Under the pieces are notes generated by a model that saw only the letters and a program-made list of their open reading frames with translations, made no database searches and was not told the origin of the DNA. A stretch of 64,000 bases of DNA from Moniliella sp. 'wahieum'. Lineage: Eukaryota. The DNA lies in NCBI GenBank assembly GCA_003971905.1, contig RSEE01000031.1:434001-498000 (forward strand), given 5' to 3'. Positions 12,074-64,000 of this stretch are shown piece after piece (position 1 is the stretch's first letter; every line of letters starts with the position of its first letter). Both the position numbers and the translations under genes were made by a program.

Positions 12074-13245
12074 ATGCCCTCACTCTCGGCCCTTCTGGGG
12101 TACGACGCGCTTCCAGGGGGGCGCGGCGCCCCTGAGCACGCCTATCCTATCGGCGCCCATGGCCGGTAGCGCAGGTGGTGCCCTTGCCGCCGCTGTCACC
12201 CGTGCCGGTGGCCTCGGCTTTTGCGGGGCTGCGATGTACGATACTGGCAAACTGGCCGAGGAAGTCAACTTGGCCCAGGCCAGCTTAGGCTTCTCTTCTC
12301 CTTCGTCTGCCGATCGATCGCAAGGGCAACGGATCCCGATTGGAGCCGGGGTTCTCGTCTGGTACCTTTCCCAACTGTACGGAGGCAAGGTCCCTGAGCC
12401 CCACCAGGGCCCTGAGACAAGTGCGGCTCATGCCCTGGTTTATGCCCTGGCTCGCACCCGGTTGGCAGCCATTTGGCTTTCTTTTGGCTCCTTGAATGAG
12501 ACAGAAGCTTGGGTGCAGTACCTGCGGTATTGGGATGCCTACTTTGCCCACAAAGAACAGGATGAGCCTGTACGGGTCATCTTGGGTGTGGGTACGGTGC
12601 AAGAAGCTGAACAGGTGCTGCATCTTCGTCCCAACGCACTCGCTGTGACAGGAAACGAAGGCGGAGGCCACGGGGTGTCGGCCTCCCCCCCAGTGAGCGA
12701 CTTGCTGGCCCAGATCAAAACTCTCGTGCGTCCCCTCGGATCGGAAGGGCCTCTGTTGTTTTGCCGCTGGGGGATTGGCGACGGGGCACGATGCTGGGCA
12801 GCTGTTGAATCAAGGTGCCGATGGTGTGATTTTTGGCACACGATACCTGCTTACCCCCGAGGCGAATTACACCCCTGTTCAAAAAGATCTCCTACTCCAG
12901 GCAGGATCGAGTTCCAAGGCGGCGACCGTCCAGGGGTATGGGACTGGGGGGCCCACAGTACGTTCTTATGCTTTTGATTATGCGCGTCAAACCACCGCTT
13001 GGCCCGCTGGGGTAGATGGGCGTGGGTTGCGTAGCCGGACTGTGGATGAGTTCGATCCGGCTCGCCCAGAAGAGGCAAGCAAGACGTACGATGGAACCGA
13101 TCCCAACCGTGTGATCGTTTGGGCAGGAACGGGGGTGGATCGCATGCACGATATTCTACTACCAGCTAGCCAGCTGACTGCCCGTCTGGCCAGCGAGATC
13201 GCTACAGTTCAAGTGGGATCGGCAACTGCAGTACCTAATAACTAG
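12074..13245 (+). CDS. Nitronate monooxygenase / 2-nitropropane dioxygenase family (FMN TIM barrel)
   Basis: PILSAPMAGSAGGALAAAVTRAGGLGF, VGTVQEAEQV, TGNEGGGHG, GADGVIFGTRYLLTPEA, TVRSYAFD, WPAGVDGRGLR, VWAGTGV. Indels near 12120 and 12760. Confidence 0.88.
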
Positions 13246-16107: not shown

Positions 16108-16217
16108 ACGCGTCGCAGGCACGCGGCAGATGGAACGCGTCGGGAAGCGCGTCACGCGTCGCGCAGGCCAACACACTGGAGACGCCCATTAACCAAAGCG
16201 CGTGACGCGGGACGCGT
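16108..16217. promoter_or_regulatory. Cluster of MCB (MluI cell-cycle box, ACGCGT) elements upstream of RNR1
   Basis: Perfect ACGCGT at 16108, 16135, 16154 and 16212, plus several CGCG variants, 390-500 bp upstream of the RNR1 ATG. RNR1/cdc22 is a classic MBF target in yeasts. Confidence 0.75.
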
Positions 16218-16606
16218 CGGTGGGCTGTCGATTGTGCTGTGGGCTGGCAGTGCAGCACAGTGCTGGGACGCGCCATATCAGATGGCTGCCGCACGCACGC
16301 ACTGCCGCAGTCAGTGGACGCGGGCGCTCGGCTACACACTGGCGCCGCCCCACTCGGTGTGGCCCGCCGCTGTGGGACGGTGGGACGCACGCAGCCGCAC
16401 GCGCGCACACTGGCCTTCTGCCCGCACCACTCGCATTGGCGCTGCCTCAGCATGCCGCACAGGTTTTAAGGCGCGTCGCGTGGGCGCGTTTTCTCTCCTT
16501 GCCACCATCCACCACTCCTCGGCCCACCAACCCCCTTGCTAGCCGCCCGGCCACCTCTTCTCTTCCGCGCCCTTCCCTGGCCTCCGCCTGTCTGCCCCTA
16601 CACACG

Positions 16607-19300
16607 ATGCTTTACGTGTATAAACGCGGTGCGTGTTCCTCCCCTCCCCCCTCCCATTTCGGCAGCGACGCGCTTCACGTCGTGCCCCGTGCTGACTCGT
16701 TTTGTCCTCCTCCAGACGGCCGCAAGGAGTCGGTCAAGTTTGACAAGGTTACTGCCCGCATCAGCAAGCTCTGCTATGGCCTCGACTCCAATTATGTTGA
16801 TCCCATCGAGATCACCCGGCGCGTCATTGAGGGCATCTACGATGGTGTAACCACTGTGGAGCTTGACAACCTGGCTGCCGAGACCGCTGCCTACAAGACC
16901 ACCACCCACCCCGACTACGCTGTCTTGGCTGCTCGCATTGCGATCTCCAACCTTCACAAGGAGACCAAAAAGCAGTTCAGCCAGGTCATCCAAGATCTCT
17001 ATGACTACATCAATCCCAAGAACGGCAAGCCCTCGCCCATGATCTCTGAAGAGACATACCAAGCTGTTATGGCCAACAAGGACCAACTCGATGGCGCCAT
17101 CATTTTTGAGCGCGACTTTCACTACAACTTCTTTGGTTTTAAGACGCTCGAGCGCTCCTATCTCCTCCGCATCAACGGCAAGGTCGCCGAGCGTCCTCAA
17201 CACATGCTGATGCGTGTTGCCGTTGGTATTCACGGCCATGACGTTGATGCGGCGATCGAGACATACAACCTCATGTCGCAGCGCTACTTTACCCATGCTT
17301 CCCCTACTCTCTTCAACGCCGGCACACCCCACCCGCAGATGGCCTCCTGCTTCCTCGTGGCAATGAAGGACGATTCGATTGAGGGTATCTACGACACGCT
17401 CAAGACGTGCGCCATGATTTCCAAGACTGCCGGCGGGATTGGGCTGCACATCCACAACATCCGCGGTACTGGCTCCTACATTGCCGGTACCAACGGTGTC
17501 AGCAATGGGATCGTGCCTATGCTTCGTGTCTTTAACAACACTGCCCGTTACGTTGATCAAGGTGGTAACAAGCGCCCGGGTGCATTTGCCATCTACGCCG
17601 AGCCTTGGCATTCGGACATCTTTGAGTTTGTTGAGCTGCGCAAGACGCATGGCAAGGAAGATTTCCGTGCGCGTGAGCTCTTTTACGCGCTCTGGATCCC
17701 CGACTTATTCATGAAGCGTGTTCAGGCCAACGGGGAATGGTCGCTGATGTGCCCGAACGAGTGCCCCGGATTGTCAGACGTGTATGGGGATGAGTTTGAA
17801 GAACTGTACCAACGCTACGAACGCGAAGGCCGGGCCAAGCGTACGGTTAAGGCGCAGAAGCTATGGTATGCTATCCTCGAGGCACAGACAGAAACTGGTA
17901 ACCCCTTCATGCTCTACAAGGACGCTGCAAACCGCAAGTCCAACCAGAAGAACCTGGGCACGATCAAGAGTTCCAACCTCCACTCTGCACCGAAATTATG
18001 GAGTACAGCGCCCCCGACGAGGTGGCTGTGTGCAACCTGGCTTCCATTGCTCTCCCCACGTTCATCGATCAAGAGACCAAAACGTATGACTTTGCCAAGT
18101 TGCACGAAGTCTCCAAGGTGCTTACCTCCAACCTCAACAAAATCATCGATGGCAACTACTACCCTGTTGAGGAGGCCAGGCGGTCCAACATGCGCCACCG
18201 CCCGATCGGCATTGGTCCAAGGTCTTGCCGATGCGTTCCAGATTTTGGGCATGCCGTTCGACAGCCCCGAGGCGCGCAAGTTGAACGTCGACATCTTTGA
18301 GACGATCTATCATGCCGCCTTGGAGCGTTCGAGTGAGATTGCCGCCAAGTTGGGCCCGTACGAGACCTACGCTGGCTCCCCTGTCTCGCAGGGCGAACTG
18401 CAGTACGACATGTGGGGGGTCACCCCGTCCAAGCGCTGGGACTGGGCTGGTCTCAAGGCCAAGATTGCGCAACACGGTGTGCGCAACTCGCTCCTGCTTG
18501 CCCCCATGCCCACCGCCTCTACTTCTCAAATTCTCGGGTTCAACGAGTGCTTTGAGCCGTACACATCCAACATTTACTCGCGTCGTGTTTTGGCGGGCGA
18601 CTTCCAGGTGGTCAACCCCTGGTTGCTACGGGACCTGGTCGAGGCCGGGCTGTGGGACGAGACGATGAAGAACCGGATCATTGCGCATGGCGCTCGATTC
18701 AAGGTGTGGATGGCATCCCTGCGCACATCAAGGCGCTGTACAAGACGGTCTGGGAGATTTCGCAGAAGGCGATCATTGACATGGCGGCGGACCGCGGTGC
18801 GTTTATCTGCCAGTCGCAGAGCATGAACCTGCACCTCCAGGCCCCCACATTGGCCAACTCACTTCGATGCACTTTTACGCTTGGAAGAAGGGGCTGAAGA
18901 CGGGTGCTTATTACCTCCGCACTCGTCCGGCCGCCAACGCGATCCAGTTCACTGTGAGCCAGGAAGAGCAGAATTTGGCCAAGGCCAAGGCGAAGGAGGA
19001 GCGTGCTACCCAGAAGGCCAAGCAGGCTGCACAGAAGAACACCCTTCTTGTGCCTGGGGCCGCGGATGTGCCCAAGCTCAGCGATGACGGGAATGTGACC
19101 ACCGACGGCCCTGGCCGCTCGCCCGTGGCTGCGTCCGACGGCACCACAGCTTCGTCTTCGACCAAGCCGGCAACCGAGGATCCAAGCCAGGACCCGGGTT
19201 CCTCGCGGCGCTCGCGCGGCAGGAGCAGCGTCAACTCGAAGCGGACAAATTGGCTTGCAGTCTGGAAAACCCGGGTGCGTGCACGATGTGCTCGGGCTAA
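16607..19300 (+). CDS. RNR1: Ribonucleoside-diphosphate reductase large subunit (class Ia)
   Basis: ATP cone [23 protein letters not shown] (intron 16629-16715); [58 protein letters not shown]-terminal [14 protein letters not shown] then TAA at 19298-19300. Indels in the 3' half. Confidence 0.97.
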
Positions 19301-19735: not shown

Positions 19736-22700
19736 ATGGCAGATGCGTATGATCTGGCACACACCGCTTGAGCGCCGCGCGAGCTTGCCATCTACAGCCG
19801 CCTCGTCACCCGCACCCTCCGTCGTTGCGCGCCCAGGCCACAGCCGATCCCGATGCCTGATCCACCTCTTCTGCCACGACAGCCTCTTTGGCCAATACGA
19901 CCCCTTCTGCCTCTCTGTCTTGCGACGTAGCCAGCTCTACTGACGGAAGGAACATACCACCTTACGCTGTCATCCAGTCCGCCATGCTCCGCATCTTCTC
20001 GTTCAAGGATAGGAGGAGGCGCGCGAGTGGATCCGCCTGCTGTGGCGCTATCTTTGCCTGTTCGCATTGTTACCGCGGCTATTTATCCGGACGCAGTTTA
20101 CTCTCTAGCTAGGGCGTACTTGGCGCGCTCTTCTCTTCTTACCGATGCTGTTGTGCTGACATCCGATCCCAGGCTGTCCAAGTCCTACCCTCCCAAGAAC
20201 ATTGACCAACTCATCAACTTCATCGATCGCTCCGAACAGGTCGCCGTTCTACTGTCTTGTGGCGGACGGAGTCTTGGAGTCGGTGGTCGATGCTGAGAGG
20301 AACAGACAAGCCTCAGTGCAGAGTCAACCTCTACCGTCCCCGTAAGGAACCTCCACCTACGCCCTTGGGCCAAGCATCGGCACCTCCGAGGCGTTTGTTC
20401 TTTGCCAAATGCTGGGTGTTCCTGAGAGGATGACCTTCGCCATGCTCTTGCTCTCTTGCTCGAAGAAGATCCCGATACTCATTTGCCCCACCATCGCATT
20501 GTAGTGTGCGCCCCTGGCCTGGTTGCGCTCCTTGCCGATTCCAATCTCGGCTTCGGCAGTGGGGCCGAACGATGCTGAAACAGCTCCCTCCCCTTCAAGC
20601 CCAGCTCATACCCCAACCACCCCCAGTGCACCCTACAGCAGACGACCCAGATGCTTGGCAGCATGGTGGTGATGCGCATCGTTGGGAACAAATCTTTCGT
20701 CCTTGGTCCGAGACCCTTTCGGACCCCGCGACGTTGGTGGAACACAAGGTGGCGCTGTGGCAGAACCTTACTCTTACCCTCTCTCGTGCGCCAGCAGATG
20801 TGGTACGATTGCAGCCACTTTCTTTTTCCCGGTCACTCTACAATGCTTGGGGAACTCGGCGCCTTACTTTGCGATGTGCTTCAGACCTACACACTAATCC
20901 TCCACCAACTCGGCCCCGTATCTGGTCCGACACAAGTGACGATGCCGAGTACCCGTCTGTCATTCTTTCCTCTGTCCTGGAAAACGTCAACTTCGGTCCT
21001 TGCTCCAACATTCAGGGAATGAACCGTGGACATGGGCGTGGGCGTCGGCACACTACGCTCCCTTCCTCCTGGCCAGACACAATTCTCTTCCACGGTCAAG
21101 ACGCTGGCCCACTGGGTCTTCATAACGATGCAGTTCCCCTCTGTATCGGACGAACTCAAGACCTGGGCAATCGAGCATGGCGTGGCTATGTTTTTGACCT
21201 TGCTCGGCCTTCCTCCCCTCCGCTTATCCCACCCCCTCCAATCTCCTGCTACAATACCAAAGCGGTTCAGGACGAATCGGCCATAGCAGCTCAGGCTTTG
21301 ACCCCCTACGCCTCCACCTTGGTCTCGGTCGCTTTGTATGACCTTCTTCCCAACGCCACGCTCCGCCTTTCCTTGGACAGCTCAGTGGGTCAGTCTTGCC
21401 GCGAACTCTTGTCCCGCCTTTTGCTCTTCGATGCGTGCAAAGTACGGACGCCGTTTTGGGGACTTGGCCAATATGCTGCAAGCCCACCTGAACGCGTGGA
21501 AGCGGCGACCCAAGCTCACCTTCACCTCGGCCCAAGTGGACGCCTCGGGCAAGGTGACCAAGCGGGCGGAGGAGATGTCGCCGAAGCAGCGAAGGCAATA
21601 GTACGTGCTGCGGCACAGCAAACCTACCCCCCCCCGCACGCCACGAGAGGTGTATGGGAGGCGTGCTACGCGGCGGTGCGCACGCCTTCCTCTGCCAGGG
21701 CCGCTTTTGCTCTGTGGCCCCACCCCTCTGTGTGGTATCTGCCATCATGGAGCCCACACCCGACCTGCTCGACTTCACCCAAGGCGATGCTGCTTTTGCC
21801 CCCGCCGAGTTCCATGCCTACAAAGCCGTCGTTACCGCTCGATCGTGCCATTAGCCAGGCATTGGACGATATGCGGACCAACGCAAGAGTTGCTACAAGA
21901 GCTCGCCACCGGTTTCAGAGTCGGACCTGAACCTGCTTTGTACCCAGCACGCAGGCGCATTGGTTCAGCTCAACCTCAGCCCAGAGACCTCGACTCACAT
22001 TGGGGCGCAGAACATGGTGCGGGCGGCATTTGATGATGTGGCAGAGCGAAGTGATTTTTCGTGCTCTCATCGTGTTGAGCCCAAACGACGCGTTGAGCGG
22101 TCTGGAAACGTTCCTCTTGTCTTTTGTTGATGTGGCAGATCGTTCGATGGAGGCCAATAAGCTGGCCGAATGGACAGTGCGCAGTTTAGCCGACATCCTT
22201 GACGTTTTGACCAACACCCGCGACGGACTCTTACGGCCAGGGACGCCCCACTCGTTCTTGTCTGATCAGCAGACCAGGGCGATCGTGTCGCGTCGCCTGG
22301 CACAGACGTGGGCCTGATGGCCCGCTCGCTCGCCATCATCTTTGACCGCACAACACTTTGGTCCCAACTGCTCAACCGGGACGCAATGGTCACCTGGTTC
22401 CGTGATGTGAACCTTTTTGCCAGCGAGATGGTGGAGCAGCTTCAGACAATCCAAGATGCCGGTGCGCTCGCCCAACCTGCCTTATCCGCCGCCCAATTCA
22501 CTCTGGCAATGGTTTCGCCTCTACAAAAGGCAATCCAGTGGCTTCGACTCAACGACAGCGAGATTATGCAGGAGACGCTCTCTTTTGTGCAGCAAGCGCT
22601 ACTCATCTTTTCACCCGACCTTCCCTTACCGGCTTCTGCCAAGGCTGGCATGCTTCATTGGGTCGATAGCCAAATGGCCATCAAGGATGCTAGCAAGCGC

Positions 22701-25700
22701 CTTACTCTGCTCACGATCGACCAGCTCGCTGCGCTCAAGTACCTTATCGAAGTGGGCCGTGTCTTGAGCAAGTCGACCGTGAGGATGAAAACGAGGATGG
22801 AAATGAGGGTGGGAAGGGGCTGGAGACAGAGGAGGATGGATGGCAGCTCATTCGCACTTCTGGGCAGGAAGGGAAACGCGTAGGTGCGTCCTCTTCCGAG
22901 AAGAGTAACACACCAACCTCCAGTCCCCCTAAAGACTTCCAGTTGGTGGGACATGGCTGTGAGCACAGTCAAAGCTGGCCCCGCTTTCTCCCCCCTCTTC
23001 CTCCCCTTCTCCCTCTCTCTCCCTCTCCCCCCCCTCTCCCACTTCTTTCCTCTCTCGCCTCGCCCTCCCCTCGCCATTACCCTCTTCCTCAACCTCTTCC
23101 TCCTCCTCCCTTCCCTCTCTCTCCCCACCTCTTCCCTATCACCCGCACCAGAACCTCATCTGTTATCGCCGACAACCAAATCTGCTAACAGAAAACAACC
23201 GCTTAATGTTCCCTATTTCCGACCCGTTATCCAAAACTACGAAGGTGGCTAAGACTGCGAAGGTGGCCAAGCCTGCGAAGGTGGCCAAGCCTGCGAAGGT
23301 GGCCAAGGCTGCAAAAGTGGCCAAGACTACGAAGGTGGCCAAGACTACGAAGGTGGCCAAGACTACGAAGGTGGACAAGACTACGAAGCTGGACAAGACT
23401 ACGAAGCTGGACAAGGCTGCAAAAGTGGCAAAGACTGCCAAGGCAGTTAAGACTACGAAGGTGAGCCCTAACCTCACTCGACCCCCAGTGACGGGGCCTT
23501 CGGTAGCCGCGGGGAAGTCATCGGGGAAGGCGCAACATGCGCGCCAGCAAGTTCGGGCTCCAGATACCCAGCTCCTCCCTAGGCCGACACGACCCGTCGC
23601 GCCGGCGCAACAGGGCCCAGCGTGGGAGGTGCCCGAGAAAGCACCTATTGCTACTCCTCCGGCATCTCTGTTACCACCTTCCTTGAGTGCACTTCGTGCC
23701 CCTACTCAAATGGTGGATAAAAGTCTTAGTGGCGGCAGCCACGCTGCGTTGGGTGACGAATCTGACCGAGCAGGGGAGGCACAGGGGGCGACCACCGTGC
23801 TCAATGGAGACGAAATTGGGAAACAAGCTCCTGTGGCAGCGTCCACGATCAAGATGATCAACGACGAGGAGGATGCGCGACGAAAAGAGCAGGAGAAGTT
23901 GGAGCGGAGGCGTCACCTACGCGCTCCGCCTGACCTTACCTTGCTTCATCGGGCCATCCTCAGCTGGGAGTTGTCGTCCGAGGCCGATACACCTCCTCTT
24001 AAGAAGCGCCCAATGAGGGTACCTCGACGGTTCGACTCTCCGAAAGAGTATATCGGGGTGTTTAGCCCTCTCCTGCTAATGGAGTGCTGGGCACAACTTC
24101 AGCAAAGCAAGGAGTTGTATGACGAGCGCCGTACGGTCACCGTCGAAGTCACGTCACGGTCGGTAGTGGATGGGTTTGTGGACGTGAATACAATCTACAC
24201 GGTCGAATCCCAGAAGTCTGAAATCCACCTGTACGACTCGGATTTGGTCTTCTTCCGTTCGGAGGTGGATCCAACGCGGGCGGTACTTGCGAAGGTTCAT
24301 TCTTACCGTCGTCATCAGCGGGGAACACAGGTTGTGTTCCGACTCTTCCTCCGCAACCCCGGCCGTGTCAATGCGCGCGAGTTCAACACTTCCATTGCTC
24401 CTCGCACTCGCTGGCAAGCAGGCACCCTTTTTTCCCTGTCCACCGTGCATCGTGAGACAATGGCCTTGTTGGTCAGCCAGTACCTCGATTTGCGCGATGC
24501 AATCTACTCGGGTACTGTCGCTCCGCGTGCCAAGGTGCCTGCGATTGACTTGGAACGCGCTCAACAAGCCTACCAGCTGAACGAGCCGCAGTCGCAGGCT
24601 GTGCTAGGTTCGCTCTCTACCAAAGGGTTCTCTCTCATCCAAGGCCCGCCGGGTACGGGCAAGACTAAAACGATCATCGCTCTTGTCGCCTCCTTCCTAT
24701 CCTCCCGTCCTCCCCAGCCTAATGGGGTCAAGGAGGGAGGCAAACCCTCGCCGTCACGAGCCAAGATCCTGCTGTGTGCCCCCTCAAATGCTGCTATTGA
24801 CGAGATTGTCCGCCGTATCAAGGATGGTGTACCAGGTGGAGACGGAAAGGTGACACATCCTGTCGTCATCCGTTTAGGACGCGAGGAGAATATCAACTCC
24901 GAGGTGAAAGACGTCTCATTGGAGGTGCTGGTCGAGCGTGCTCTTTCCACTGGCCCAGATGTGCAGGGCGACCTGGCGGCGCTTCGAGAGGAACTCAGGC
25001 AACTCCAACAGCAGCGTCAACTCCTGCAAGCCGAGATCACCACAAGCAATCAAGCTGGGGACAAAACAAAGGCCACCGCGGCTCAGACCAAATTGCGTTC
25101 GGTGATGGCCAAGCGGATGAAAATCATGTCCAAGCTGGACGATACCCGGGACGCACAACGCACTCAAATGCGAAAGCGGGATGCTGAGCGCCGTCGTCTG
25201 CGCACCCAAATGATTCTGGGAGCCGATATTGTTTGCTCTACCTTGTCGGGCGCCGGACAGGGGGCGATTGCCTCACTCGACATTGACTTTGAGACTGTGG
25301 TAGTTGACGAAGCGGCCCAAGCTGTGGAACTGTCAACGTTGATCCCACTTCGATACGGGTGCAAACAATGTATTCTTGTTGGCGACCCTCACCAACTTCC
25401 TCCAACCGTCCTCTCCATGCCTGCTCAAACGGCTGGCTATTCACAGTCCTTATTTGTGCGGCTCTTCAACCCATCCAACGTATACCTACTTTCGTGCGTA
25501 TCCCCCCTCGCGCGCGCCTTCACTTGTCTCGTTGGGTTCATACTGATGACATATTTCTTTCTCTCCATCTCAGAATCCAATACCGCATGCATCCTTCAAT
25601 AAGCAAATTTCCTTCTGCATCTTCTACCAGGGGCTCCTCAAAGATGGACCCGACATGGCAGCCAAAACCAAGCGTGAATGGCATGGAGATACAGCGACCC

Positions 25701-27019
25701 CGACCTTTTTCTTCTTCGATGTCCTCGGTCTGAGGCCGCCGGCCGATCGCACTCGTTCATCAACCGAGAAGAGGCCCAGGTGGCAGTCGCATTATATGAG
25801 CGACTTCTTCATTTTTTCCCCACCCAGGACTTTACCCACCGAATCGGCGTTGTGACCTCGTACAAGGATCAAGTTGATGAGCTTCGGAAGGCGTTCGCGG
25901 CCAGGTATGGCTGGGACATTACCACCACTGTCGACTTTGGGACGGTTGACGGTTTCCAAGGCCAGGAAAAAGATTATCATACTTTCGCTTGTTCGCTCCT
26001 CTAGCATCGGCTTCTTGGCGGATATGCGTCGCATGAACGTCGCCCTGACTCGGGCCCGGGCAAGTCTGTTCGTACTGGGACATGTGCCCAACTTGCGTAA
26101 GAATCCAACCTGGAGTGCGTTGATTGATGCAGCCAAGTCGGCGGGCTTGGTCAAGTCGGTCACTGCCGACACAATCCGCAGGATGCCCATCCAGCGACCT
26201 AAGGCGGAGGCCAAGCCCGCCACATTGGCAGCCCGACTTTCTGTCGATGTGGCCAAAATCAACCCCATTGGCGCACAAAACGGACCGGATTCCCAAGGAA
26301 ACGGCAACGACCGCCAAATTCCAAAGGCATGGCTGCTACGCCCCCCCAAGGACCTTTTCCCCGTCAAGAAGCGTATCGTCAGTATTCCTGATGAGTTGGG
26401 AAAGGCTCAGCCCCAGTGCAAGAGCGTGGCTCTACCTTCCTACAATTCACCCTCGTCGAAAAACCCTGTCCCACAGGGTCAGTCCAAGGCTCCACCCACT
26501 CTTCCCATACACAAGCCCGCGCCCAAGCCCAATCTTTTCATGCCTAAGCAGAAGCCCAAGTCCAAGCCCAAGCACAAGTCTACGCTCAATACCACCGTTG
26601 GGCCCACGCCCAAGTCTCCGCCCACTCCCAAGCCCGCACCCAAGCCCGCACCCAAGCCCGCACCCAAGCCCGCCCGCCCAAGCCCGCACCCAAGCCCGCA
26701 CCCAAGCCGCACCCAAGCCCGCACCCAAGCCCGCACCCAAGCCCGTGCCCAAGCCCGCCCCAAGCCCAAGGCCACGCTCGACCCAGCACCTTCCATATCC
26801 AAGCACACTAAGCCTCCGCCTCCGCCTGTGCTTCCCAAACCACCCCCGTCCAAGGGGATCGTGATGTTGAATGATCACGAGGTGCCGACGCTGAAAAAAC
26901 GCAAGAGAGGTGCCGGTTCGACCGGCCAGGCGGCTCCTTTCGTACCTGTGCGGAACGCCGCGGCCGTGGGCAGGGGAGTACGGATGTGGCGGCGACTGGA
27001 CCTCTGCTCGCCGGCCTAG
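19736..27019 (+). CDS. SEN1: Sen1/senataxin SF1 RNA/DNA helicase
   Basis: Sen1 N-terminal traces (IHLFC, LRIFSF, CSHCYRGY); VPRRFDSPKEYIGVFSPLLLMECWAQL; LIQGPPGTGKT; ILLCAPSNAAIDEI; VDEAAQAVE; ILVGDPHQLPPTV; QYRMHP; TVDGFQGQEKD; IGFLADMRRMNVALTRAR. Introns near 22884-23190 and 25494-25573. Both ends are approximate because of indels. Confidence 0.9.
23233..23463 (+). repeat. 18-bp coding minisatellite, about 12.5 copies, encoding (KTTKVA)-like hexapeptides in SEN1
   Basis: Unit consensus AAGACTACGAAGGTGGCC; translation KTTKVA KTAKVA KPAKVA KPAKVA KAAKVA KTTKVA KTTKVA KTTKVD KTTKLD KTTKLD KAAKVA KTAKAV KTTKV. Confidence 0.95.
26627..26770 (+). repeat. 12-bp tandem repeat CCCAAGCCCGCA, encoding (PKPA)n in the SEN1 C-terminal tail
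   Basis: About 11-12 near-perfect copies seen directly; single-base losses in two units shift the frame. Confidence 0.93.
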
Positions 27020-50006: not shown

Positions 50007-50166
50007 TGTCGGCCTCGCTACTACCACAGAATGTGAGCACTGAACGTCGTATTGGACTAAGAAGCTTCTGCGACTGACTCGTCCAGAAGACTGGTGCGAG
50101 CTCGGAAGGAATGAAAGCTGACTCACGTGACTCAGGGTCCGCGCGGTCCTAGGACGGATGTCAACA
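50007..50166 (-). repeat. 3' LTR of the copia element (160 bp)
   Basis: Minus strand TGTTGACA...CCGACA; matches 54910-55068 except for one extra C. Confidence 0.96.
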
Positions 50167-53100
50167 CCCCCGCTGACCGGAGGGCCCAGTCATGTGGACT
50201 GGATCCATCTCCTCGACGCGGAGTTGAGCAAGATGGCTTGTCAGGGCGGGACGGCCGAGAGGCTTGGTGAGGACGTCCGCTGGGTTCCTTTCGCCGGGGA
50301 TGTGTACAAGTATGGCCTCGCCCGAGTCCACGTGTTGCCGTACATTGTGGTACCGGATCTTCAGCTCTCGGAGCTTGCCGGTGCTGCCAAATTTGTGGGC
50401 GAGATCGACGACAGACTTATTGTCGCAATACCAATGAATGGGTGTACCCTCGCCGATGGCCCCAAGCTCGATCATGATGTTCTTGACATAGTTGGCGTCA
50501 ACCAGTCCATCATATCCTGCCGTATATTCGGCGGCGGCGGTACTGGTAACGCTCTTCGGCTGAAGAATGGATCGCCACGACACCGGCACACCGTACACCA
50601 TCAGTAGGCATCCAGATGTGGAGCGTGCCTGGATGGGATCTCCCGCCAAGTCGGAATCTGTATACAGCGCAATGGCCGGTGCATCTGATGTTGGGGTCAA
50701 CCTCAGGCCCTTTCCTCGAGTATGGTACAGGTAGCGAAGGAAGTCATCGACTGCTTGATGATGCTGCTGCGATGGGTCGGCAGCGGCTCTGCTGAGGGCC
50801 GTGATAGCGAAGAGGGAGTCAGGCCGGCCCATTCGTGCAGCCCACAGTCCCGATCCGATCTTCCCCTGATATGCCTTGCGCAAGGCTGGGAGGGATGGGG
50901 GTTCAGGGTCGGCACGGGGCGGTATCATCCGTACGGGATGTGGGAGAGTCCGGATCCACGGGGCTTTGATGTGGTGCTTTGCCACCACTTCCTCGATGAA
51001 CTTTGGTTGGCTCAGGTACAGCTCCCCACCGATCCGATCGTATTGGCATCCCAGGTGGTAGTGAAGGGGACCGTTACCACGAACATCAATGTGTGTGTTT
51101 ATCTCGGCCATAAACTCCTCGTACTTTTGGTGTGACTTGCATGCGAGGAGCAGATCGTCGGTGTGGACCGCCAGGAGGATCTGCTCACCCGGTGGTGCAG
51201 CGCGCACGAACAAGCAGGGCTCGGTCAAGCTTTGCGTGAAGCCGAGCTTGTCACGCAGCAGGTTCCGGATGTATCGTGCCCAGTTTGCTCCGCTCTGATG
51301 TAGCCCGTATAGACTCTTCTTGAGACGCCACACGCGACCACCCGCTTCGGGGAAGTAGGGGGGTGGGCGGATGTAGACTGCTTCTTCGAGGGGGGCGTTC
51401 AGGTACGCTGCATTGACGTCCGCCGAGAAGAGGCCAAACTTATACTTCTCGGCCAGCACGACGAGGGTCAGGATGGCAGGTGTGCGCACCGATGGTGCGA
51501 ACGTCTGGCCCCAAGTCTCGGCCGATTGTTGGTGTCCGCCCGCGACAAAGCGCGCGCGGTGGCGCAGGAACCGGCCCTCGGCGTCCGTCTTTGTGTGTGA
51601 TGCGCCATAGTCCTATGAGGATTTGTGCACCCGGTGGTGGGTACGTAGCCTCGTAGGTGCCGTATCGCGCGAGTGTGGCCACCTCGTCGGCCATAGCCTG
51701 CTTGACCATGGCAAAGGAGGGGTGAGTCTCGAGACCCTTGAGCGTCTTGGGAGCGAGGGGTACGCCATCCTTGGTGAGCTGAACCGTGTCCGGGTGGATG
51801 GGTGCGCTGAGAGCAGTCATGGCGGCGTATTCGGGAGGTTGAACTGTGTCGGCAAACGGGGGGGCGGATGTGTCAGGTAGGGGGCGGGCGATGCCGATCT
51901 CTGGTGCGGCGCAGTGGGGCGTGGCGGCTGCAGCACGAGCATGGTAGGTCGTGTCGGTGGGGTCGTCAGCGATTGGGAGTGTGTGCAGGTCGAGGGAGGT
52001 GCGGGTGGTGCGCTGGCGGAGGGGGTAGCGGCGCGGAGGGGGGGGGTGGTGGTGGGAGCGGGTGTCTGGGGTGTGGCGGCGGTTCGGGGCATGGGTGCTG
52101 CCGCGGCTGGCGGAGTAGGGTTAGCGTCTTTTTCACTGTCGATTTTAATTTGAGGTGATTTGGAGATGTCGGGTGGGAAGTGGTCGGGGTGGAGATGGGG
52201 GTAGATGGCGTTGCCCCATTTGTACGGTTTCGACCAGCGGTAGGTGAAGGTACCCAGGGATGGTTGGTATGTGGCGAAGAGCCATCCCTTTGATCCGCGC
52301 TGATGGTGGTATCCTACCAGCATACCTTCCTCTGCCCGCGCGCTGAGCTTGTGCTCGCGGCGTGACTCGGGCAGATGGAGGTATGCAACGCGGCCAAAGG
52401 GTTGCATCGGTAACGAGTATGCGTGGCCTTTGTATCGCTCAAATCGCGATTTGTTGTCTTCCCCGGATGTTTTGAGTGGCATTTGGTTTTGGGTGAAGCA
52501 CGCAGCGTGGAGGCTGTGTTCCCACCAGTCCGACGTCGGAAGACCTGTACCCAAGAGCAACTGCCTTGCACGAGTCGTTATGGTTCGGATGGCACGCTCA
52601 GCCACACCGTTGCTAGCACTCTGCCCCGGGATTGTCCGTTCTGACGTGATGCCTTGCTCGTCCAGAAAAGGTTGCAGTGCGCTTGTCAATTCGGGGGCGT
52701 TGTCCGTGCGCAAAGTCCGCAGCAGTCTGTCCGGGCCGTAGCGTTGCTCCCGCAATATGAGGTTCCGCAGTTCCTTCGTTGCAGCGCCCTTTGTCGGGAT
52801 CGCTGTGGTGAAGACGTACCGCGTGAAGTCATCAACGGCGACGAGGGCGTATCCGTGCCCCATGCCGGTTACCCGGGGGAGGTCTACTACGTCGACGTGG
52901 AGGACCTCGAAAGGTCTTTTGGATCGGAGGCGGTCCCGGCTCGGATGGGGCGATGCTGTCGCTAGTGCCACCGCGCATGTTGGGCAATCCCACTCTGAAC
53001 GACAGAGGGAGATATGCTTGGCTGTGACGCGGAGGCCTGCGGTTTCCGATCGTGTAAGCCAGGGGAGGAGGTCGATGGCTGCGTGGTTCCAGCGTTTGTG

Positions 53101-53607
53101 GGCTTTAGAGACGTGGTCCAGGGCCAGGGATGCTGCGAGGGAGTTTGGGGTTGAGGGTGGGTCGGCCGGTTTGATCGGTTTGGTCGCCATGGCCCGCAGG
53201 GGTGTGGGTGGCGTTCGCGGGTTGTGTAAGATCGTGAATTGATAGTCACTGCCGGTTACTTTTCGTAGGGTGGATCCTGGGTTACCAAGCCAGATACCCT
53301 TCTGGTGTGGGGCGAAGTATGATGCGATTCCGGTGTTCGACAGGTGTGCTACACTGACGAGATTTCGGCTGAAACGGGGCATGTATAGGCTGTTGGGGAG
53401 TTTTATCTCCATTTGGTGTCCTCCTAAGCATCGGATACGGATTGTGGCCGTGCCTCGTCCTTCCGCCTTTACATGTGTCCCGTTAGCAACCTCTATCTCG
53501 TCGTCGCAAGGGGTCATGGATGTGAAGACGGATTTGTCTTTCCAAATGGATGGGAATGCCCCACTGTCATATAATGCCCGGATGATTCGCATTTCGCCCC
53601 CGAGTTC
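50161..53607 (-). CDS. pol: Copia Pol: protease, integrase, reverse transcriptase, RNase H
   Basis: PR LYDSGA; IN HKRWNH..CPTC, LHVDV, LRTDNAPEL, NGVAERAIRT; RT ADVNAAYLNA, LKKSLYGLHQSG, AVHTDDLL; RH YTDSDLAGD, CDNKS, NPADVLTKPL. Apparent frameshifts near 51820 and 51570. Confidence 0.93.
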
Positions 53608-54855
53608 CTAGTAGTCAGCTGTGCCCGCATCAACGTCAATCACTTCAGACTCGGGAGAGCTCGCTCTCTGAGCGACGTGAGCGTTGGCTCGGCCTGGGTT
53701 GCGCGGAGGGACAACAGGTTTATTAGACGTCGCGCTGCGCCAGGGTTGGTTGGTGCGGTCTTGCCCCTTGGTCTTTGTGTCCGCGAGGTTGTCGTCGCCG
53801 GCTTTGCCCCCGCTGGAGTTTTTTCCCCCGCTGGTGGGTCGTCCCCCGCTGTCGGGTCGAGTCCAAGGCGTTCCTCCGTTGACCGGCTTGCCTCCGTTTC
53901 TCTTCCTTTCTCCACCGGGATACGTGGCGGCTGGTATGTCCATCACGGCCTGCCGTAACTTGTCTAGACTCGAGCGCTCTTCACGCTGGCGAATGCTCAT
54001 GTCGCGTAAGCCGAGTAGGATCCCAGTGCGTTCCTGCTCTTCCGTAAGTGGGATGCCCGCTCGCGTCAGGCTTGCACTGATCTCTTCCATGTAGTCGAGG
54101 TAGTCTCGACCCGATCGGTTTCCTTGGTCGGCCGAAAAGTAGCGAATGAGTAGAGGCCCTCTGTTTGCGGTAGGCGTATATCCATACCGCTGACGCAGCA
54201 TGTTCAGCGTGTCCTGGGTGCATGATATTTCGTGGTGGGTGCGGATCGTCCGGAAGAGGGTTGACGGCATGGCTTCCCTAAGAAGGTTGTGCAAGCGTCT
54301 GTCGAGGTCCTCGGTGAAGTAGCGGGAGCTGCGACCATTCTGGACGACGTCGCTTGCGTGGGGGTGGGCATCTGTTATCGCGAAGAGAAATTCGTCTTCC
54401 CAAGCGCTGTAGGCGGACGGGTCTTTGTTCAGATCAGGCCACTTGATATTCTTGGTGGGAGACTCGCGTAGTGATCTGTAAAGGTCGTACTCGGGTCGCG
54501 AGGCTGCGCCTGTAGGTGCCCCCAAAGTTGCGTTGGGTTGAGTTTCCATTTGGTGGATGTTTTGCACCACAAAATTCGTAGCCCGTCGAACCCAGTTTGT
54601 CGTGATAGACGTAGGTTCGTCCTTCCATCCAAGCCACTCGGCTCTGTCGTGTATAGCTCTGTTGATCTTCTCTTTAACGACATCGATGTCGTTCGTCTTC
54701 TTGAACCACAGGTGCGCTTCGGCGCAAAGCATCATGAGTTCCTCGTTGTCGGTGCCAATCGGTGGCGGATCGCGACCGGTTGGTGTCCAGTAATCGCGCT
54801 TGTTCACCATTGTGGTGTCGCTGACCGAGAGATCGGTGTTAGCGTTGGCGCCCAT
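53608..54855 (-). CDS. gag: Copia Gag
   Basis: ORF of about 415 codons starting at the ATG at 54855, just inside the 5' LTR; gag-like core (YSAWEDEFL, DYLDYMEEISASLTRAGIPLTEEQERTGILLGL); ends at TAG 53610-53608, in frame with pol. Confidence 0.85.
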   Translation of the reverse strand: MGANANTDLSVSDTTMVNKRDYWTPTGRDPPPIGTDNEELMMLCAEAHLWFKKTNDIDVVKEKINRAIHDRAEWLGWKDEPTSITTNWVRRATNFVVQNIHQMETQPNATLGAPTGAASRPEYDLYRSLRESPTKNIKWPDLNKDPSAYSAWEDEFLFAITDAHPHASDVVQNGRSSRYFTEDLDRRLHNLLREAMPSTLFRTIRTHHEISCTQDTLNMLRQRYGYTPTANRGPLLIRYFSADQGNRSGRDYLDYMEEISASLTRAGIPLTEEQERTGILLGLRDMSIRQREERSSLDKLRQAVMDIPAATYPGGERKRNGGKPVNGGTPWTRPDSGGRPTSGGKNSSGGKAGDDNLADTKTKGQDRTNQPWRSATSNKPVVPPRNPGRANAHVAQRASSPESEVIDVDAGTADY

Positions 54856-54909
54856 GGTTGTGGGTGTAGTTTTGGCCAGCTCAGGGATGAGCAGATAAGG
54901 ATGTAACTC

Positions 54910-55068
54910 TGTCGGCCTCGCTACTACCACAGAATGTGAGCACTGAACGTCGTATTGGACTAAGAAGCTTCTGCGACTGACTCGTCCAGAAGACTGGTGC
55001 GAGCTCGGAAGGAATGAAAGCTGACTCACGTGACTCAGGGTCGCGCGGTCCTAGGACGGATGTCAACA
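54910..55068 (-). repeat. 5' LTR of the copia element (159 bp)
   Basis: Direct repeat of 50007-50166. Confidence 0.96.
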
Positions 55069-55972: not shown

Positions 55973-57710
55973 TCAGCGGCCAATGTAGCGTCGCTCGAGC
56001 CAGCGGGCTGGGATGTAGCCAATGGCAGTAAAGAAGAAGGAGAGCAGCCAGCCGACGTCACCTCCTTCTCCGCCAAACTTGGCAGCGATCGGGCCGACGT
56101 ACCACGTCTCGCTCATGCACCCCACCGCGCCGGCAATCCCGCACGCAAACGCAAACAGTGCGCCGAGGCCGATGGGCAGGCGCGAAGGATCGTTCCAGAT
56201 GGTCCAGTCGTAGCCGCGGTAGTTGCGGCGAAACAAAGTGTTCCATCATGATCACGCCAATAAAGATGCAGGACCAGTAGCCCATGATGCCCAAGAAGCT
56301 CTGCAACACTTGTTGCAGTGCCGAGCGCCCGGCAATGGCCAGCACCGCCACCACCACCTCAGTCGCCAGCGTCCATACGATCCGCGGAACGTACTGCAGC
56401 GGGCGGGCAAATTGCAAGATGGAAAGAGTTACCGAGTAGGTACTGATGACCAGCACGCCGAGCGAACTGAGCATGCCCATGGCCAAGGCGAATTTAGCCC
56501 AGGGCAAGGGGTGGAGCGCCTGTAGGATCAGCCCACCGACTTGGAGGTTACTGTCGTACGCGGCTTGCCACGAGGGGATGCGACCCATAATGTCCGAGTA
56601 GCAGCAGCCCAGGACCATGCCAAACGCCGTGGGGACCGAGATGCCAAACAAGTTGAACGCAAACACGAGCGGTTTCGACGTCTTGACCGGGTACACGGCA
56701 AAGTAGTCACTCGCGATCGAACTCCAACTGACGCTCGAGCCAAAGACAATGGCCCAAAGCGTCAATGAGTTGCCGGTCAACTCGAGCCCCGTCGCTGTCG
56801 ACGGACCCAGCTCTGCCTTGCCCGCATTTTGAATGTACATGGCCAAAAACACGCCAAACATGATGACCCACGCCACGGACGAGTAGTTGATCACCCCATT
56901 CACCCCAAACACGGAAAAGAAGAAGGAGATGCAGACCAAGACGATGGTGCCGGCAGCGACCGACAGGCTGTGGCCCACCGCGGCGGCCAACGCCTGCGCG
57001 CCCGAGATGCACGCCACGACGCACCAGCCGCCATTGACAATCACGTTCAAAAACGCGACGATGCGAGAAAACCAGAGCCCCGAGTAGCGCGAGATGGATA
57101 CTTGGCGCAGCCCGCTTTCCGGTCCAAACGTCGCGCACCACGCCACCGGCATCGAGCCCAGCAGCGTCGCACCACACGTCAAGCCAATCGACCGGCCTAG
57201 GCTCATGTCCATCGTAGGACCAATCAGGCCAGTGCTAAAGCAGGACAGGTTCTGTGGGGCGAGGAGAGCGGGACAGAGAGAGGGTGTTAGTACGGTGCCA
57301 ATAAGGCGAATGCGAGCGCCCAGAATGAGTCTGTAAACCGTCCCCAATGAGCCAGTGGAAAGGGCAAGGGCAAAAGCAAGGGCAAGGGCAAGGGCAAGGC
57401 CGGGGGACTAAGGACGGACCATGGTGCAACTGGCCCAAAAGACCGACATGAGCATGAGTTGGCGTCGTGTACCCGTCCGGTTTTCCGGCAGGATGCGTTC
57501 GATCGCATTGGACTCGACGCCGAGTTTTTGGTCGAGGAGGCCTTCCCAGTAGAGCATGCGCTGGAAAAAGTTGCCGTCGCGACGGCCGAGCGGCGCATGG
57601 GCAGCCGCATCGTCGGGCGCTGGTGGGATCGGCATAGTGCTCGCCAGGGACGAGACCAGCTCGACGTCCTTCTCGTTGAGGTCTTTCTTGGACAGGGCGC
57701 CGTCGGACAT
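55973..57710 (-). CDS. Purine-cytosine permease family (NCS1; Fcy2/Tpn1-like) transporter
   Basis: LGVESNAIERI, FGPESGLRQVSISRYS, multiple TM segments, SWSSIASDY, NCS1-type FLGIMGYW...MEHF, WYVGPIA, YIPARWLE. Intron about 57252-57419 with a TACTAAC branch point. Confidence 0.9.
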
Positions 57711-63088: not shown

Positions 63089-63545
63089 ATGCCCGCCCTT
63101 ACGCCCCAGCAGCACCGCACCCTCCTTTCTCTCTACCGCCGTGCGCTCAAGCAGGGCCAAGTCAGCTTTGCGGGCGACCCCAGTGCGCTCGCCGGATGGT
63201 TCCGCCACGTGCGCGCCCAGTTCCAACAGCCTCTGCCCCCGGCACGGGAGGGCGAGGATGCGGTGGCGGCCAAGGTGCAGGAATGGGAGGAAGGGCTGCG
63301 CTATCTCCGCCACAACATCGTCCAAGGCGTACGGCAAGAAGCGACGGGCGCGTACCGTACGTGGCGCCTCACCCTTCCCGCCGTGTTGTGCGACAACTGC
63401 TTCGAGTTTGAGTACTGACTGTTTTGGTGCGGGTCGTCGGGTTGGCAGGACTGAGGATCACCCCGACACGGAGTGGGCAACAATGAAGATATCAAGAAGG
63501 CCAGTAAGAAGCTCGCTAGCTCGGGAGTGGGGTGCTGCGGGGGAG
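63089..63545 (+). CDS. MZM1: Mzm1/LYRM7 LYR-motif complex III (Rieske) assembly chaperone; N-terminal module of a probable fusion ORF
   Basis: LLSLYRRALK...SFAGD, YLRHNIVQG, Y/RLRITPDTE.GNNEDIK. Intron 63357-63448 (GTACGT..TACTGAC..CAG). Two 1-nt losses at about 63464 and 63473 must be assumed. No stop follows the domain. Confidence 0.85.
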
Positions 63546-63673
63546 CAGGCGGTGCGGGCGTGTCGAACGCCCGTCCTTTTTCCACCCTGGCTCGGCGGCC
63601 TCAGCGTAGTCCCAGCACCAGCACCAGCACTGGCTTGGCCCTGGCGCGTAGCTTTGCCACGTCTGCACCGACG

Positions 63674-64000
63674 ATGGGCAGGCCAACCAAGTTGCATACG
63701 CCTGGCCCGTGTCCAAGTTCCCAATGACGATCGTGTTGAACGATGGATCGTCGATTGACGTGTTTACCTCCTCCTCCTCGTGCGGCGATGCGGTTGACCA
63801 GGGACCCAACGAACCACCCGCTGTGGAACCCGTTGGCAGAGCGGTCCAATGCGTTGGGTGTCGCGGTCGATATGGAAGGTCAACTGGGCCGCTTCCAAAA
63901 AAAGTTCTCCCAAGACGACTTTGCGTTTGCCGAGGAGGACTTGGACTGGATGTCGGGCGGGCAAGAGGCGACGCGGGGTGCGACGGTCGTCAAGACTTCC
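63674..64000 (+). CDS. MRPL36: Mitochondrial ribosomal protein bL31m (Mrpl36-like); C-terminal module of a probable fusion ORF, truncated by the window end
   Basis: KFPMTIVLNDGSSIDVFTSS then PRAAMRLTRDPTNHPLWNP...EGQLGRFQKKF, the fungal bL31m signature. Compensating indels near 63710 and 63770. Confidence 0.78.

Follow-up and report, generated by a model that had tools for sequence, protein, structure and literature searches.

Does the end of a 64,000-nucleotide (nt) stretch of fungal DNA encode one mitochondrial protein or two? The stretch, called the window here and counted from its first letter, comes from Moniliella sp. 'wahieum' (contig RSEE01000031.1, positions 434,001 to 498,000). On its plus strand, at 63089-64000, lies a gene of two exons that reads from a LYR protein of the Mzm1/LYRM7 type, through a spacer rich in Ser, Thr, Ala and Arg, into the mitoribosomal protein bL31m. 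Mzm1/LYRM7 is the Rieske-protein chaperone of complex III. Elsewhere, Mzm1 and bL31m are encoded by separate genes of ~110-135 and ~120-200 codons, respectively. A first-pass annotation of the window had read the locus as a single gene, in which Mzm1 is followed by a presequence-derived linker and by bL31m. The comparisons with related proteins bear this out. With 61 full-length fused relatives from three fungal classes, and a linker motif that matches the end of the stand-alone bL31m presequence, a conserved fusion gene is almost certainly real and extends over a whole subphylum, the Ustilaginomycotina.

Organization of the gene

Exon 1 (63089..63356, plus strand) starts with an ATG at 63089 and encodes the N-terminal part of the LYR domain. 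Its translation runs from MPALTPQQHRTLLSLYRRALK to NIVQGVRQEATGAY, with the LYR tripeptide inside, and the exon ends in phase 1 after ...GAY. It aligns with the N-terminal halves of the fused relatives, the nearest full-length one being P0079, with 46% identity over exon 1 (blastp). This low value suggests that the window organism is a rather isolated member of the clade. The intron that follows (63357..63448, plus strand) is 92 nt long, with GTACGT at its 5' end, a branch-like TACTGAC and CAG at its 3' end. For comparison, contigs of close relatives from two public sets, runs X1 and X2, were used. A 240-nt contig of run X2 joins 63357 straight to exon-2 sequence; lacking the intron, it could be cDNA or an intron-less allele. 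In relatives P0085, P0002 and P0006, open reading frame (ORF) calls on unspliced DNA read on after ...AY, at the same codon. Thus, this intron position in the Mzm1 part is apparently common to the window lineage and to Ustilago-type and Malassezia-type genes.

Exon 2 begins at 63449 and leaves the window at 64000. Its start (63449..63544, plus strand) encodes the C-terminal part of Mzm1, RLRITPDTE-GNNEDIKK...GVGCCGG, in which two bases are absent from the assembly. The linker follows (63545..63655, plus strand), rich in Ser, Thr, Ala and Arg, without a single acidic residue after CCGG and with two R-x-F-[S/A]-T motifs. The frame 63455-63727 translates as GNNEDIKKASKKLASSGVGCCGGAGGAGVSNARPFSTLARRPQRSPSTSTSTGLALARSFATSAPTMGRPTKLH and passes without a stop from GNNEDIKK through the linker. 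The first motif copy, RPFST (63572..63586, plus strand), is non-conserved and aligns with an RSFSS that P0007, P0028 and P0042, proteins of the Microstromatales type, have in addition. The second, RSFAT (63647..63661, plus strand), aligns with the conserved island of the family and is the predicted processing site. The sole in-frame Met of this frame, at 63674, lies downstream of RSFAT.

The bL31m part (63656..64000, plus strand) reads ATSAPTMGRPTKLH...TIVLNDGSSIDVFTS...RLTRDPTNHPLWNP...DLDWMSGGQEA... and its 3' end is cut by the window edge; judged by the relative P0088, ~8 codons of the C-terminus lie beyond. The segment RLTRDPTNHPLWNP...GRFQKKF...DLDWMSGGQEA shares the frame of the linker (position mod 3 = 2 for both). 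The block PVSKFPMTIVLNDGSSIDVFTS, which includes TIVLNDGS, is off frame (63704..63773, plus strand; translated stretch 63706-63771) and is bounded by two single-base insertions or deletions (indels). The first-pass annotation had described the open frame, the acid-free linker with its two motifs, the frame shared with bL31m and the lone ATG behind the linker, and all four descriptions agree with the window sequence. It had overlooked the 92-nt intron, two further indels in exon 2 and the running of the gene off the window.

Open frames as such carry little information in this DNA. At 61% G+C, the 64 kb of the window contain 290 stretches of 110 codons or more without a stop, and an open frame of 90 codons is unremarkable among them. 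It is the occurrence of the same fused arrangement in relatives that gives the finding its weight.

Conservation in the Ustilaginomycotina

In a search among longer proteins, the last 74 codons of the window match 8 of 88 candidates (E=8.6e-12). Six of these are complete LYR-bL31m fusions and two are N-terminally truncated calls; three of the eight carry both Pfam families in precomputed annotation. A profile built from the six fusions finds 78 proteins, 31 of them with an organism name. Among the named matches, 30 of 31 belong to 16 genera of Ustilaginomycotina, and all 30 are fused. The genera are Ustilago, Sporisorium, Kalmanozyma, Pseudozyma, Melanopsichium, Testicularia, Violaceomyces, Thecaphora, Exobasidium, Meira, Ceraceosorus, Microstroma, Sympodiomycopsis, Parajaminaea, Tilletia and Malassezia. 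Lineage look-up of four of them returned Malasseziomycetes, Exobasidiomycetes (twice) and Ustilaginomycetes, that is, three classes; the other 12 we take to be Ustilaginomycotina as well. The one named match from another subphylum, in the rust Melampsora (Pucciniomycotina), is a stand-alone bL31m of 184 residues.

An exhaustive HMMER scan over 1.84 billion cluster representatives returned 1301 matches at E≤0.001. Among the best 150 of these, 8 cover the whole profile, 5 are calls of exon 2 only and the remainder match one half only. Both domain motifs occur in the fused order in 75 of 214 stored proteins, 61 of which have a complete N-terminus, and the fused proteins are 255-390 residues long. 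One protein, P0080 (195 residues), might be taken for a stand-alone bL31m of the clade. Its start, ...LRPLGQCARAMHTT, however, is like an Mzm1 tail with the motif behind it, and a truncated call of a fused gene is the probable explanation.

Identity of the two halves

The Mzm1 signature comprises a LYR motif, TELGxN..IK and a Cys-rich tail. In the window, the LYR tripeptide and the conserved Phe downstream of it read ...SLYRRALKQGQVSFAGD, and this Phe (F26) is invariant in 61/61 relatives. The Pfam family Complex1_LYR (PF05347, cut-off 24.8) scores 33.0 bits in P0017, 36.0 in P0012 and 29.7 in P0033. An AlphaFold2 model of P0079 has a mean pLDDT of 66.8 and a pTM of 0.37, with a confident helical bundle at residues 1-118 (helices 5-25, 30-52 and 55-74; pLDDT 77-95). 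When residues 2-91 of this model are used as the query of a structural search, the best neighbours are LYR-holding entries, namely complex I, NFS1-ISD11-ACP and mitoribosome assembly intermediates, with Z values of 9.7-8.1, which are modest for a helical bundle.

The assignment to the Mzm1 subfamily comes from several sides. Fused relatives bear the automatic database names 'related to MZM1', 'Mitochondrial zinc maintenance protein 1' and 'complex III assembly factor LYRM7'. The family profile also matches stand-alone proteins of 105-135 residues with the TELGxN..IK motif and a Cys-rich end. One of these, P0189, stands among Atlas clusters named Mzm1 (again automatic names) and matches a LYRM7 cluster in structure (TM 0.74/0.77). 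Among Protein Data Bank chains, no solved Mzm1 or LYRM7 chain matches the family profile at E≤0.01. By its sequence features, the N-terminal half thus classes as an orthologue of the LYRM7 subfamily, i.e. Mzm1.

For the C-terminal half, the core signature is DGS...RDxTNHPLWNP, and solved structures give a direct match. A profile of six fused relatives finds the mitoribosome chains 6yw5_V (Neurospora bL31m, E=8.9e-14) and 3j6b_V (yeast bL31m, E=7e-12). The Pfam family bL31_N (PF21492, cut-off 27) scores 30.1 bits in P0079, 30.8 in P0012, 28.4 in P0033 and 29.1 in P0088, and stays below the cut-off in P0017 (22.0 bits). The first-pass annotation had proposed searching the locus with LYR and L31 domain profiles. 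Such searches exceed the Pfam cut-offs in several relatives; the raw pieces of the window remain sub-threshold, with 13.7 bits (E=0.06) for exon 1 alone and 14.5 bits for the bL31m piece. The latter score is low since the domain is divided between two frames as assembled.

Frame breaks in the assembled gene

As assembled, the gene contains four single-base indels: the compensating pair around TIVLNDGS and two further ones in exon 2. The frame of exon 1, when uncorrected, meets a stop at 63484-63486, before GNNEDIKK, and the uncorrected linker frame meets one at 63725-63727. The contigs of close relatives differ from the window at these very places. A 268-nt contig of run X1, which covers 63581-63840 and is 95-99% alike, differs by an additional C after 63703 and by the lack of one base at 63773, in a (CCT)n run. 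Corrected accordingly, the text reads ...GRPTKLHTPRPVSKFP.TIVLNDGSSID.FTSSPRAAMRLTRDPTNHPLWNP in a single frame, exactly as expected from the compensating pair proposed in the first-pass annotation. The protein P0088 (115 residues), 95% identical to the last 73 codons of the window, likewise has GRPTKLHTPRPVSKFPTTIVLNDGSSIDAFTSSPRAAMRLTRDPTNHPLW in a single frame and supplies the missing C-terminus. The X2 contig has a fifth C in the run 63461-63464, where the window has four, and a C before TGGGC at 63473/63474. With these two bases, exon 1 reads YRLRITPDTELGNNEDIKK and continues without a gap to 63617, inside the linker. In this part of exon 2, the relatives have T-E-L-G, which is invariant in 61/61 of them.

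Two unrelated genes of the window show frame switches of the same kind, without an intron. In an NMO-family gene on the plus strand, the frame switches within ~10 nt at 12747-12761, where ...GSEGPLLF meets FAAGGLATGHDAG... with no room for an intron. A SNF2/Rad54-like gene, which lies on the minus strand, has a compensating pair of switches at ~4359 and ~4308 (51 nt apart); its text runs ...SKQEEAGVK, TFARTKRYDVMVIGYEK and LRSCMDQL..., the frame changing at each join. Because relatives are in frame at all four places and these two genes carry similar switches, the four frame breaks are most likely single-base errors of the assembly.

Alternatively, the frameshifts could be real and the locus a dead copy, with the working copy elsewhere in this genome. 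The two stops in the assembled sequence would fit such a copy. So would the state of a long conserved gene of the same window, the 877-codon ORF of the ribonucleotide reductase large subunit (2.6 kb), which is intact. Indel errors are therefore not uniformly dense, and the four discussed here form a cluster within 320 nt, points that also weigh against the explanation by assembly errors. A dead copy is nevertheless improbable. In protein, all frame segments still match the close relative P0088 with 91-95% identity, and X1 differs from the window by 2 indels and only 4 substitutions in 260 nt, a ratio that resembles error rather than decay. In addition, the single-base frame switches, one of them a compensating pair, are shared by two housekeeping-type genes that are unrelated to this locus.

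The junction between Mzm1 and bL31m

Stand-alone fungal Mzm1 proteins end a few residues past their Cys-rich tail (...GCCGGH, ...GCCGSK, ...GCCGGAAKQAH). In the window, GVGCCGG, which ends at 63544, is this tail, and the linker starts right behind it. Since the spacer begins just where stand-alone Mzm1 ends, the fusion keeps the entire Mzm1.

The tail itself varies. Stand-alone Mzm1 proteins have Cys-Cys or Cys-x-x-Cys types of tail (GCCGG, CGSPSCC, GGCCGG), and the Cys pair of the window lies at 63533-63538. One tail Cys is retained in 75% of the 61 fused proteins, which is intriguing given the name of Mzm1, first chosen for mitochondrial zinc maintenance.

In relatives, the linker measures 27-110 residues (median 61) and is composed of 26% Ser and 18% Ala, with 3.9% acidic residues (D+E) vs 11% over the whole fused proteins. 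It is disordered in the P0079 model (pLDDT 44-51, residues 121-180). In the 61-protein alignment, its sole conserved island is R-x-[F/Y]-[S/A/H]-[T/S], flanked by columns of <40% conservation. Within the island, R is found in 55/61 proteins and F/Y in 61/61; the next position is S in 55/61, A in 4 and H in 2, and the last is T in 55/61 and S in 6. Of the fusion and the conserved linker that the first-pass annotation had suggested looking for in relatives, the fusion is thus found, and the linker is conserved only at R-x-[F/Y]-S-T and otherwise variable.

Stand-alone bL31m has this motif too, at the end of its N-terminal presequence. It occurs as MKRLNLITQSIRSF-TST in Melampsora and as ...TRSVSSSPYGRTHVWKRR... 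in about ten other stand-alone proteins, ~20 residues ahead of the core. The pattern is present in 19/34 non-fused entries, a set that includes a few truncated fused calls. In the short-linker forms of Malassezia, the motif follows almost directly behind the Mzm1 helix. To judge by this resemblance to the presequence end of the stand-alone protein, the junction is the site at which bL31m was formerly processed, and what lay upstream for targeting has probably decayed in large part to a Ser-rich spacer.

The linker also bears on the question of whether bL31m has a start of its own. A Met is present anywhere in the linker in 30 of the 75 fused proteins, at positions that do not align, and is missing in the other 45. 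No linker Met being conserved, bL31m has no start codon of its own, and an internal start as the general route to bL31m was rejected on these grounds. This touches the idea that there is no functional fusion at all, and that gene callers have merged neighbouring genes, with bL31m made from its own transcript and from a start inside the linker. The in-frame ATG at 63674 could serve such a start, and one ORF caller did begin P0088 there. Yet this ATG follows the motif, so that a product started from it would lack a presequence. The frame is open through the 27-110-residue linker in 75 proteins, taken from varied callers and from raw ORF calls; none of the 75 has a stop after the Mzm1 tail, and 45 offer no Met in the linker. 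Moreover, the intron-less X2 contig spans Mzm1 exon 1 into the linker. A merger of separate genes is therefore a very remote prospect.

Probable processing of the fused protein

If the two halves are made as one chain, how are they separated? The fused protein is probably a composite mitochondrial precursor, imported as one chain and cleaved by mitochondrial processing peptidase (MPP). This reading is adopted because bL31m has no start of its own, because the frame stays open through a spacer of variable length and because the motif is the only constraint on that spacer. The precursor would consist of three parts: a complete Mzm1/LYRM7-type protein with the Cys-rich C-terminus of its ancestor, a disordered spacer, rich in Ser and Ala, that goes back to the old presequence of bL31m, and bL31m. 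N-terminal targeting information carried on Mzm1 would direct import. In the matrix, MPP would cut at R-x-[F/Y]-S-T, an Icp55-type aminopeptidase would strip the F/Y, and free Mzm1 and free bL31m would be released. Making both from one precursor might also couple their stoichiometry, as the first-pass annotation had proposed. In R-x-[F/Y]-[S/A] one has the MPP motif in its R-3 form: MPP cleaves behind R-x, and the aromatic residue is taken off by Icp55. For the window, the predicted cut falls between S and F of RSFAT (63650-63655), and mature bL31m would start with ATSAPT...

Several features of the relatives weigh against cleavage. The Arg of the motif is absent in 6/61 fused proteins, among them four of Tilletia (AAFST twice, ASFST and HAFST) and P0079 at the aligned position, and 8/75 do not match even a looser motif pattern. 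The 30 residues before the motif have a net charge of at least +2 in 50/61 proteins by a crude count; only 8/61 are free of acidic residues there. These residues are often Ser-rich with few basic ones, and some Ustilago-type proteins have 0-2 K+R. Hence, a classical amphipathic presequence is not seen in many species. The motif might also owe its conservation to a place within mature bL31m and not to cleavage.

The same features would suit a fusion that is left uncut, or is partly cut, and acts as a bifunctional protein, its LYR domain tethered to bL31m on the mitoribosome. With a linker this long and disordered, both domains could fold and work without being separated. Mitoribosome assembly intermediates do carry LYR proteins, as the structural neighbours 7aoi_XM, 6yxy_EJ and 7o9k_v illustrate, and in other lineages LYR-type domains are fused to an RF-1 domain protein of mitochondrial translation. 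Nevertheless, an uncut protein is unlikely. The linker has a single conserved island, a textbook motif of the MPP/Icp55 type that is homologous to the end of the stand-alone bL31m presequence. Mzm1 must presumably reach the Rieske protein in the matrix, which would be harder if it were fixed to the ribosome. In the part of PMC8734313 devoted to known composite precursors, every one of them has an MPP motif at its junction. Collectively, these points favour the composite precursor cleaved by MPP.

Comparison with known composite precursors

Both halves are recognizable orthologues of stand-alone Mzm1/LYRM7 and of bL31m (yeast Mrpl36 and the Neurospora protein), but there they are encoded by separate genes. 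Fused arrangements of other mitochondrial proteins are known. The composite precursors treated in the relevant part of PMC8734313 are Arg5,6, Atp25, Etp1, Rsm22-Cox11, SPAC22A12.08c and rice RPS14. Mzm1 is absent from PMC8734313, including its list of composite precursors.

Arg5,6 of Saccharomyces cerevisiae and other fungi resembles the Mzm1-bL31m fusion: two matrix proteins are encoded in one ORF, throughout a large fungal clade, with an MPP motif at the junction, as far as the passages of PMC8734313 on this protein go. According to the same passages, cleavage has been shown at an internal R-2-type MPP site at the junction, followed by trimming by Icp55, and Atp25 too is cut by MPP at an internal R-2 site with Icp55 trimming. 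The differences are equally clear. The halves of Arg5,6 are consecutive enzymes of one pathway, whereas those of Mzm1-bL31m come from different processes. Arg5,6 has a cleavable N-terminal presequence, whereas the Mzm1 partner is a small LYR protein without an obvious one. Finally, cleavage is demonstrated in Arg5,6, whereas in Mzm1-bL31m it is predicted.

In S. cerevisiae Atp25, a ribosome-silencing factor (Rsf) part and a stabilizer of an ATP synthase mRNA are separated by MPP, as stated in the section of PMC5063612 that deals with this protein. There, as in Mzm1-bL31m, one product is linked to the mitoribosome and the other serves a complex of oxidative phosphorylation. Atp25 differs by its other domains and their order, by being cut three times and by a ribosome-binding part that is a factor, not a structural protein.

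The pairing of functions is also close in Rsm22-Cox11 of Schizosaccharomyces pombe. This fusion is known from a narrow lineage. It couples a protein associated with the mitoribosome to a factor for assembling a respiratory complex, and the lines that PMC8734313 gives to it place an MPP motif between the two. In Rsm22-Cox11 the ribosomal part comes first, unlike in Mzm1-bL31m, and the partners are the small-subunit protein Rsm22 and the complex IV factor Cox11.

The first-pass annotation had known of no description of the Mzm1-bL31m pairing. None was found in the literature, leaving aside Table S3 of PMC11293456 and the fungal fusion survey of Leonard & Richards 2012, which may mention it; part of PMC11293456 names Lyrm7 among the LYRM subfamilies with most fusions. 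Gene models of the fusion are, however, already public, named after one half ('Mitochondrial zinc maintenance protein 1', 'ribosomal protein L31' or 'complex III assembly factor LYRM7'). Therefore, the pairing is, as far as this literature search reaches, undescribed rather than unseen, and bL31m looks missing from some proteomes because the fused gene is labelled Mzm1 there.

Other LYR fusions and neighbouring genes

Fused LYR domains are found in other settings as well. In P0110, P0146 and P0208, and probably in the truncated P0142, an Mzm1-type LYR domain is N-terminal to an RF-1 domain of the GGQ, mtRF-R/Pth4-like kind (62-85 bits with Pfam RF-1 in P0110, P0146 and P0208, cut-off 35). An R/K-x-x-[F/Y]-[S/T] stretch lies between the domains. 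The LYR-RF-1 proteins form Atlas clusters of 58 and 93 members, mostly Basidiomycota. An arthropod cluster of 67 members has RF-1 in 100% and Complex1_LYR in 91%, its LYR part being unassigned to a subfamily. As predicted from its domains, LYR-RF-1 is a second, independent pairing of a LYR protein with a protein of mitochondrial translation. P0187 (706 residues) and P0207 (700 residues) start with an Mzm1-type N-terminus, with TELGSN..VK and Cys, followed by ...ARSYST and ...TRSYST, respectively. The remainder is a helical protein of ~570 residues that belongs to no Pfam family. With Mzm1 again at the front, these two may represent a third composite precursor. In such fusions, LYRM7 thus seems to recur as the N-terminal partner, twice with proteins of mitochondrial translation.

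Among the neighbours of the fusion gene, a Ty1/copia-type retrotransposon occupies 50164-55050 on the minus strand, with RVT_2, integrase core, Pol beta-barrel and SH3-like domains on consecutive ORFs. The intact 877-codon ORF of the ribonucleotide reductase large subunit lies at 16193-18823 on the plus strand, a Sen1-type helicase at 22266-27016 on the plus strand and a purine/cytosine permease at 56061-57407 on the minus strand.

Biological meaning

A more far-reaching thought is that LYRM7-type domains are recurrent N-terminal partners of mitochondrial-translation proteins because the link is functional, and that part of Mzm1-bL31m stays uncut, as an acyl-ACP-sensing LYR module on the mitoribosome. 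This is speculative and rather improbable; if true, the uncut module would couple complex III assembly or acetyl-CoA status to mitochondrial translation.

Few natural composite mitochondrial precursors are known. By joining an assembly factor of complex III to a structural protein of the mitoribosome, the fusion would enlarge this small group by a member fixed throughout a fungal subphylum. To that subphylum belong Ustilago maydis, a model organism in genetics, and Malassezia, the yeasts of human skin. The fusion would thus provide a natural system for studying how MPP recognizes internal sites after decay of the targeting helix, what makes such fusions last, and whether assembly of the bc1 complex is linked to mitochondrial translation.

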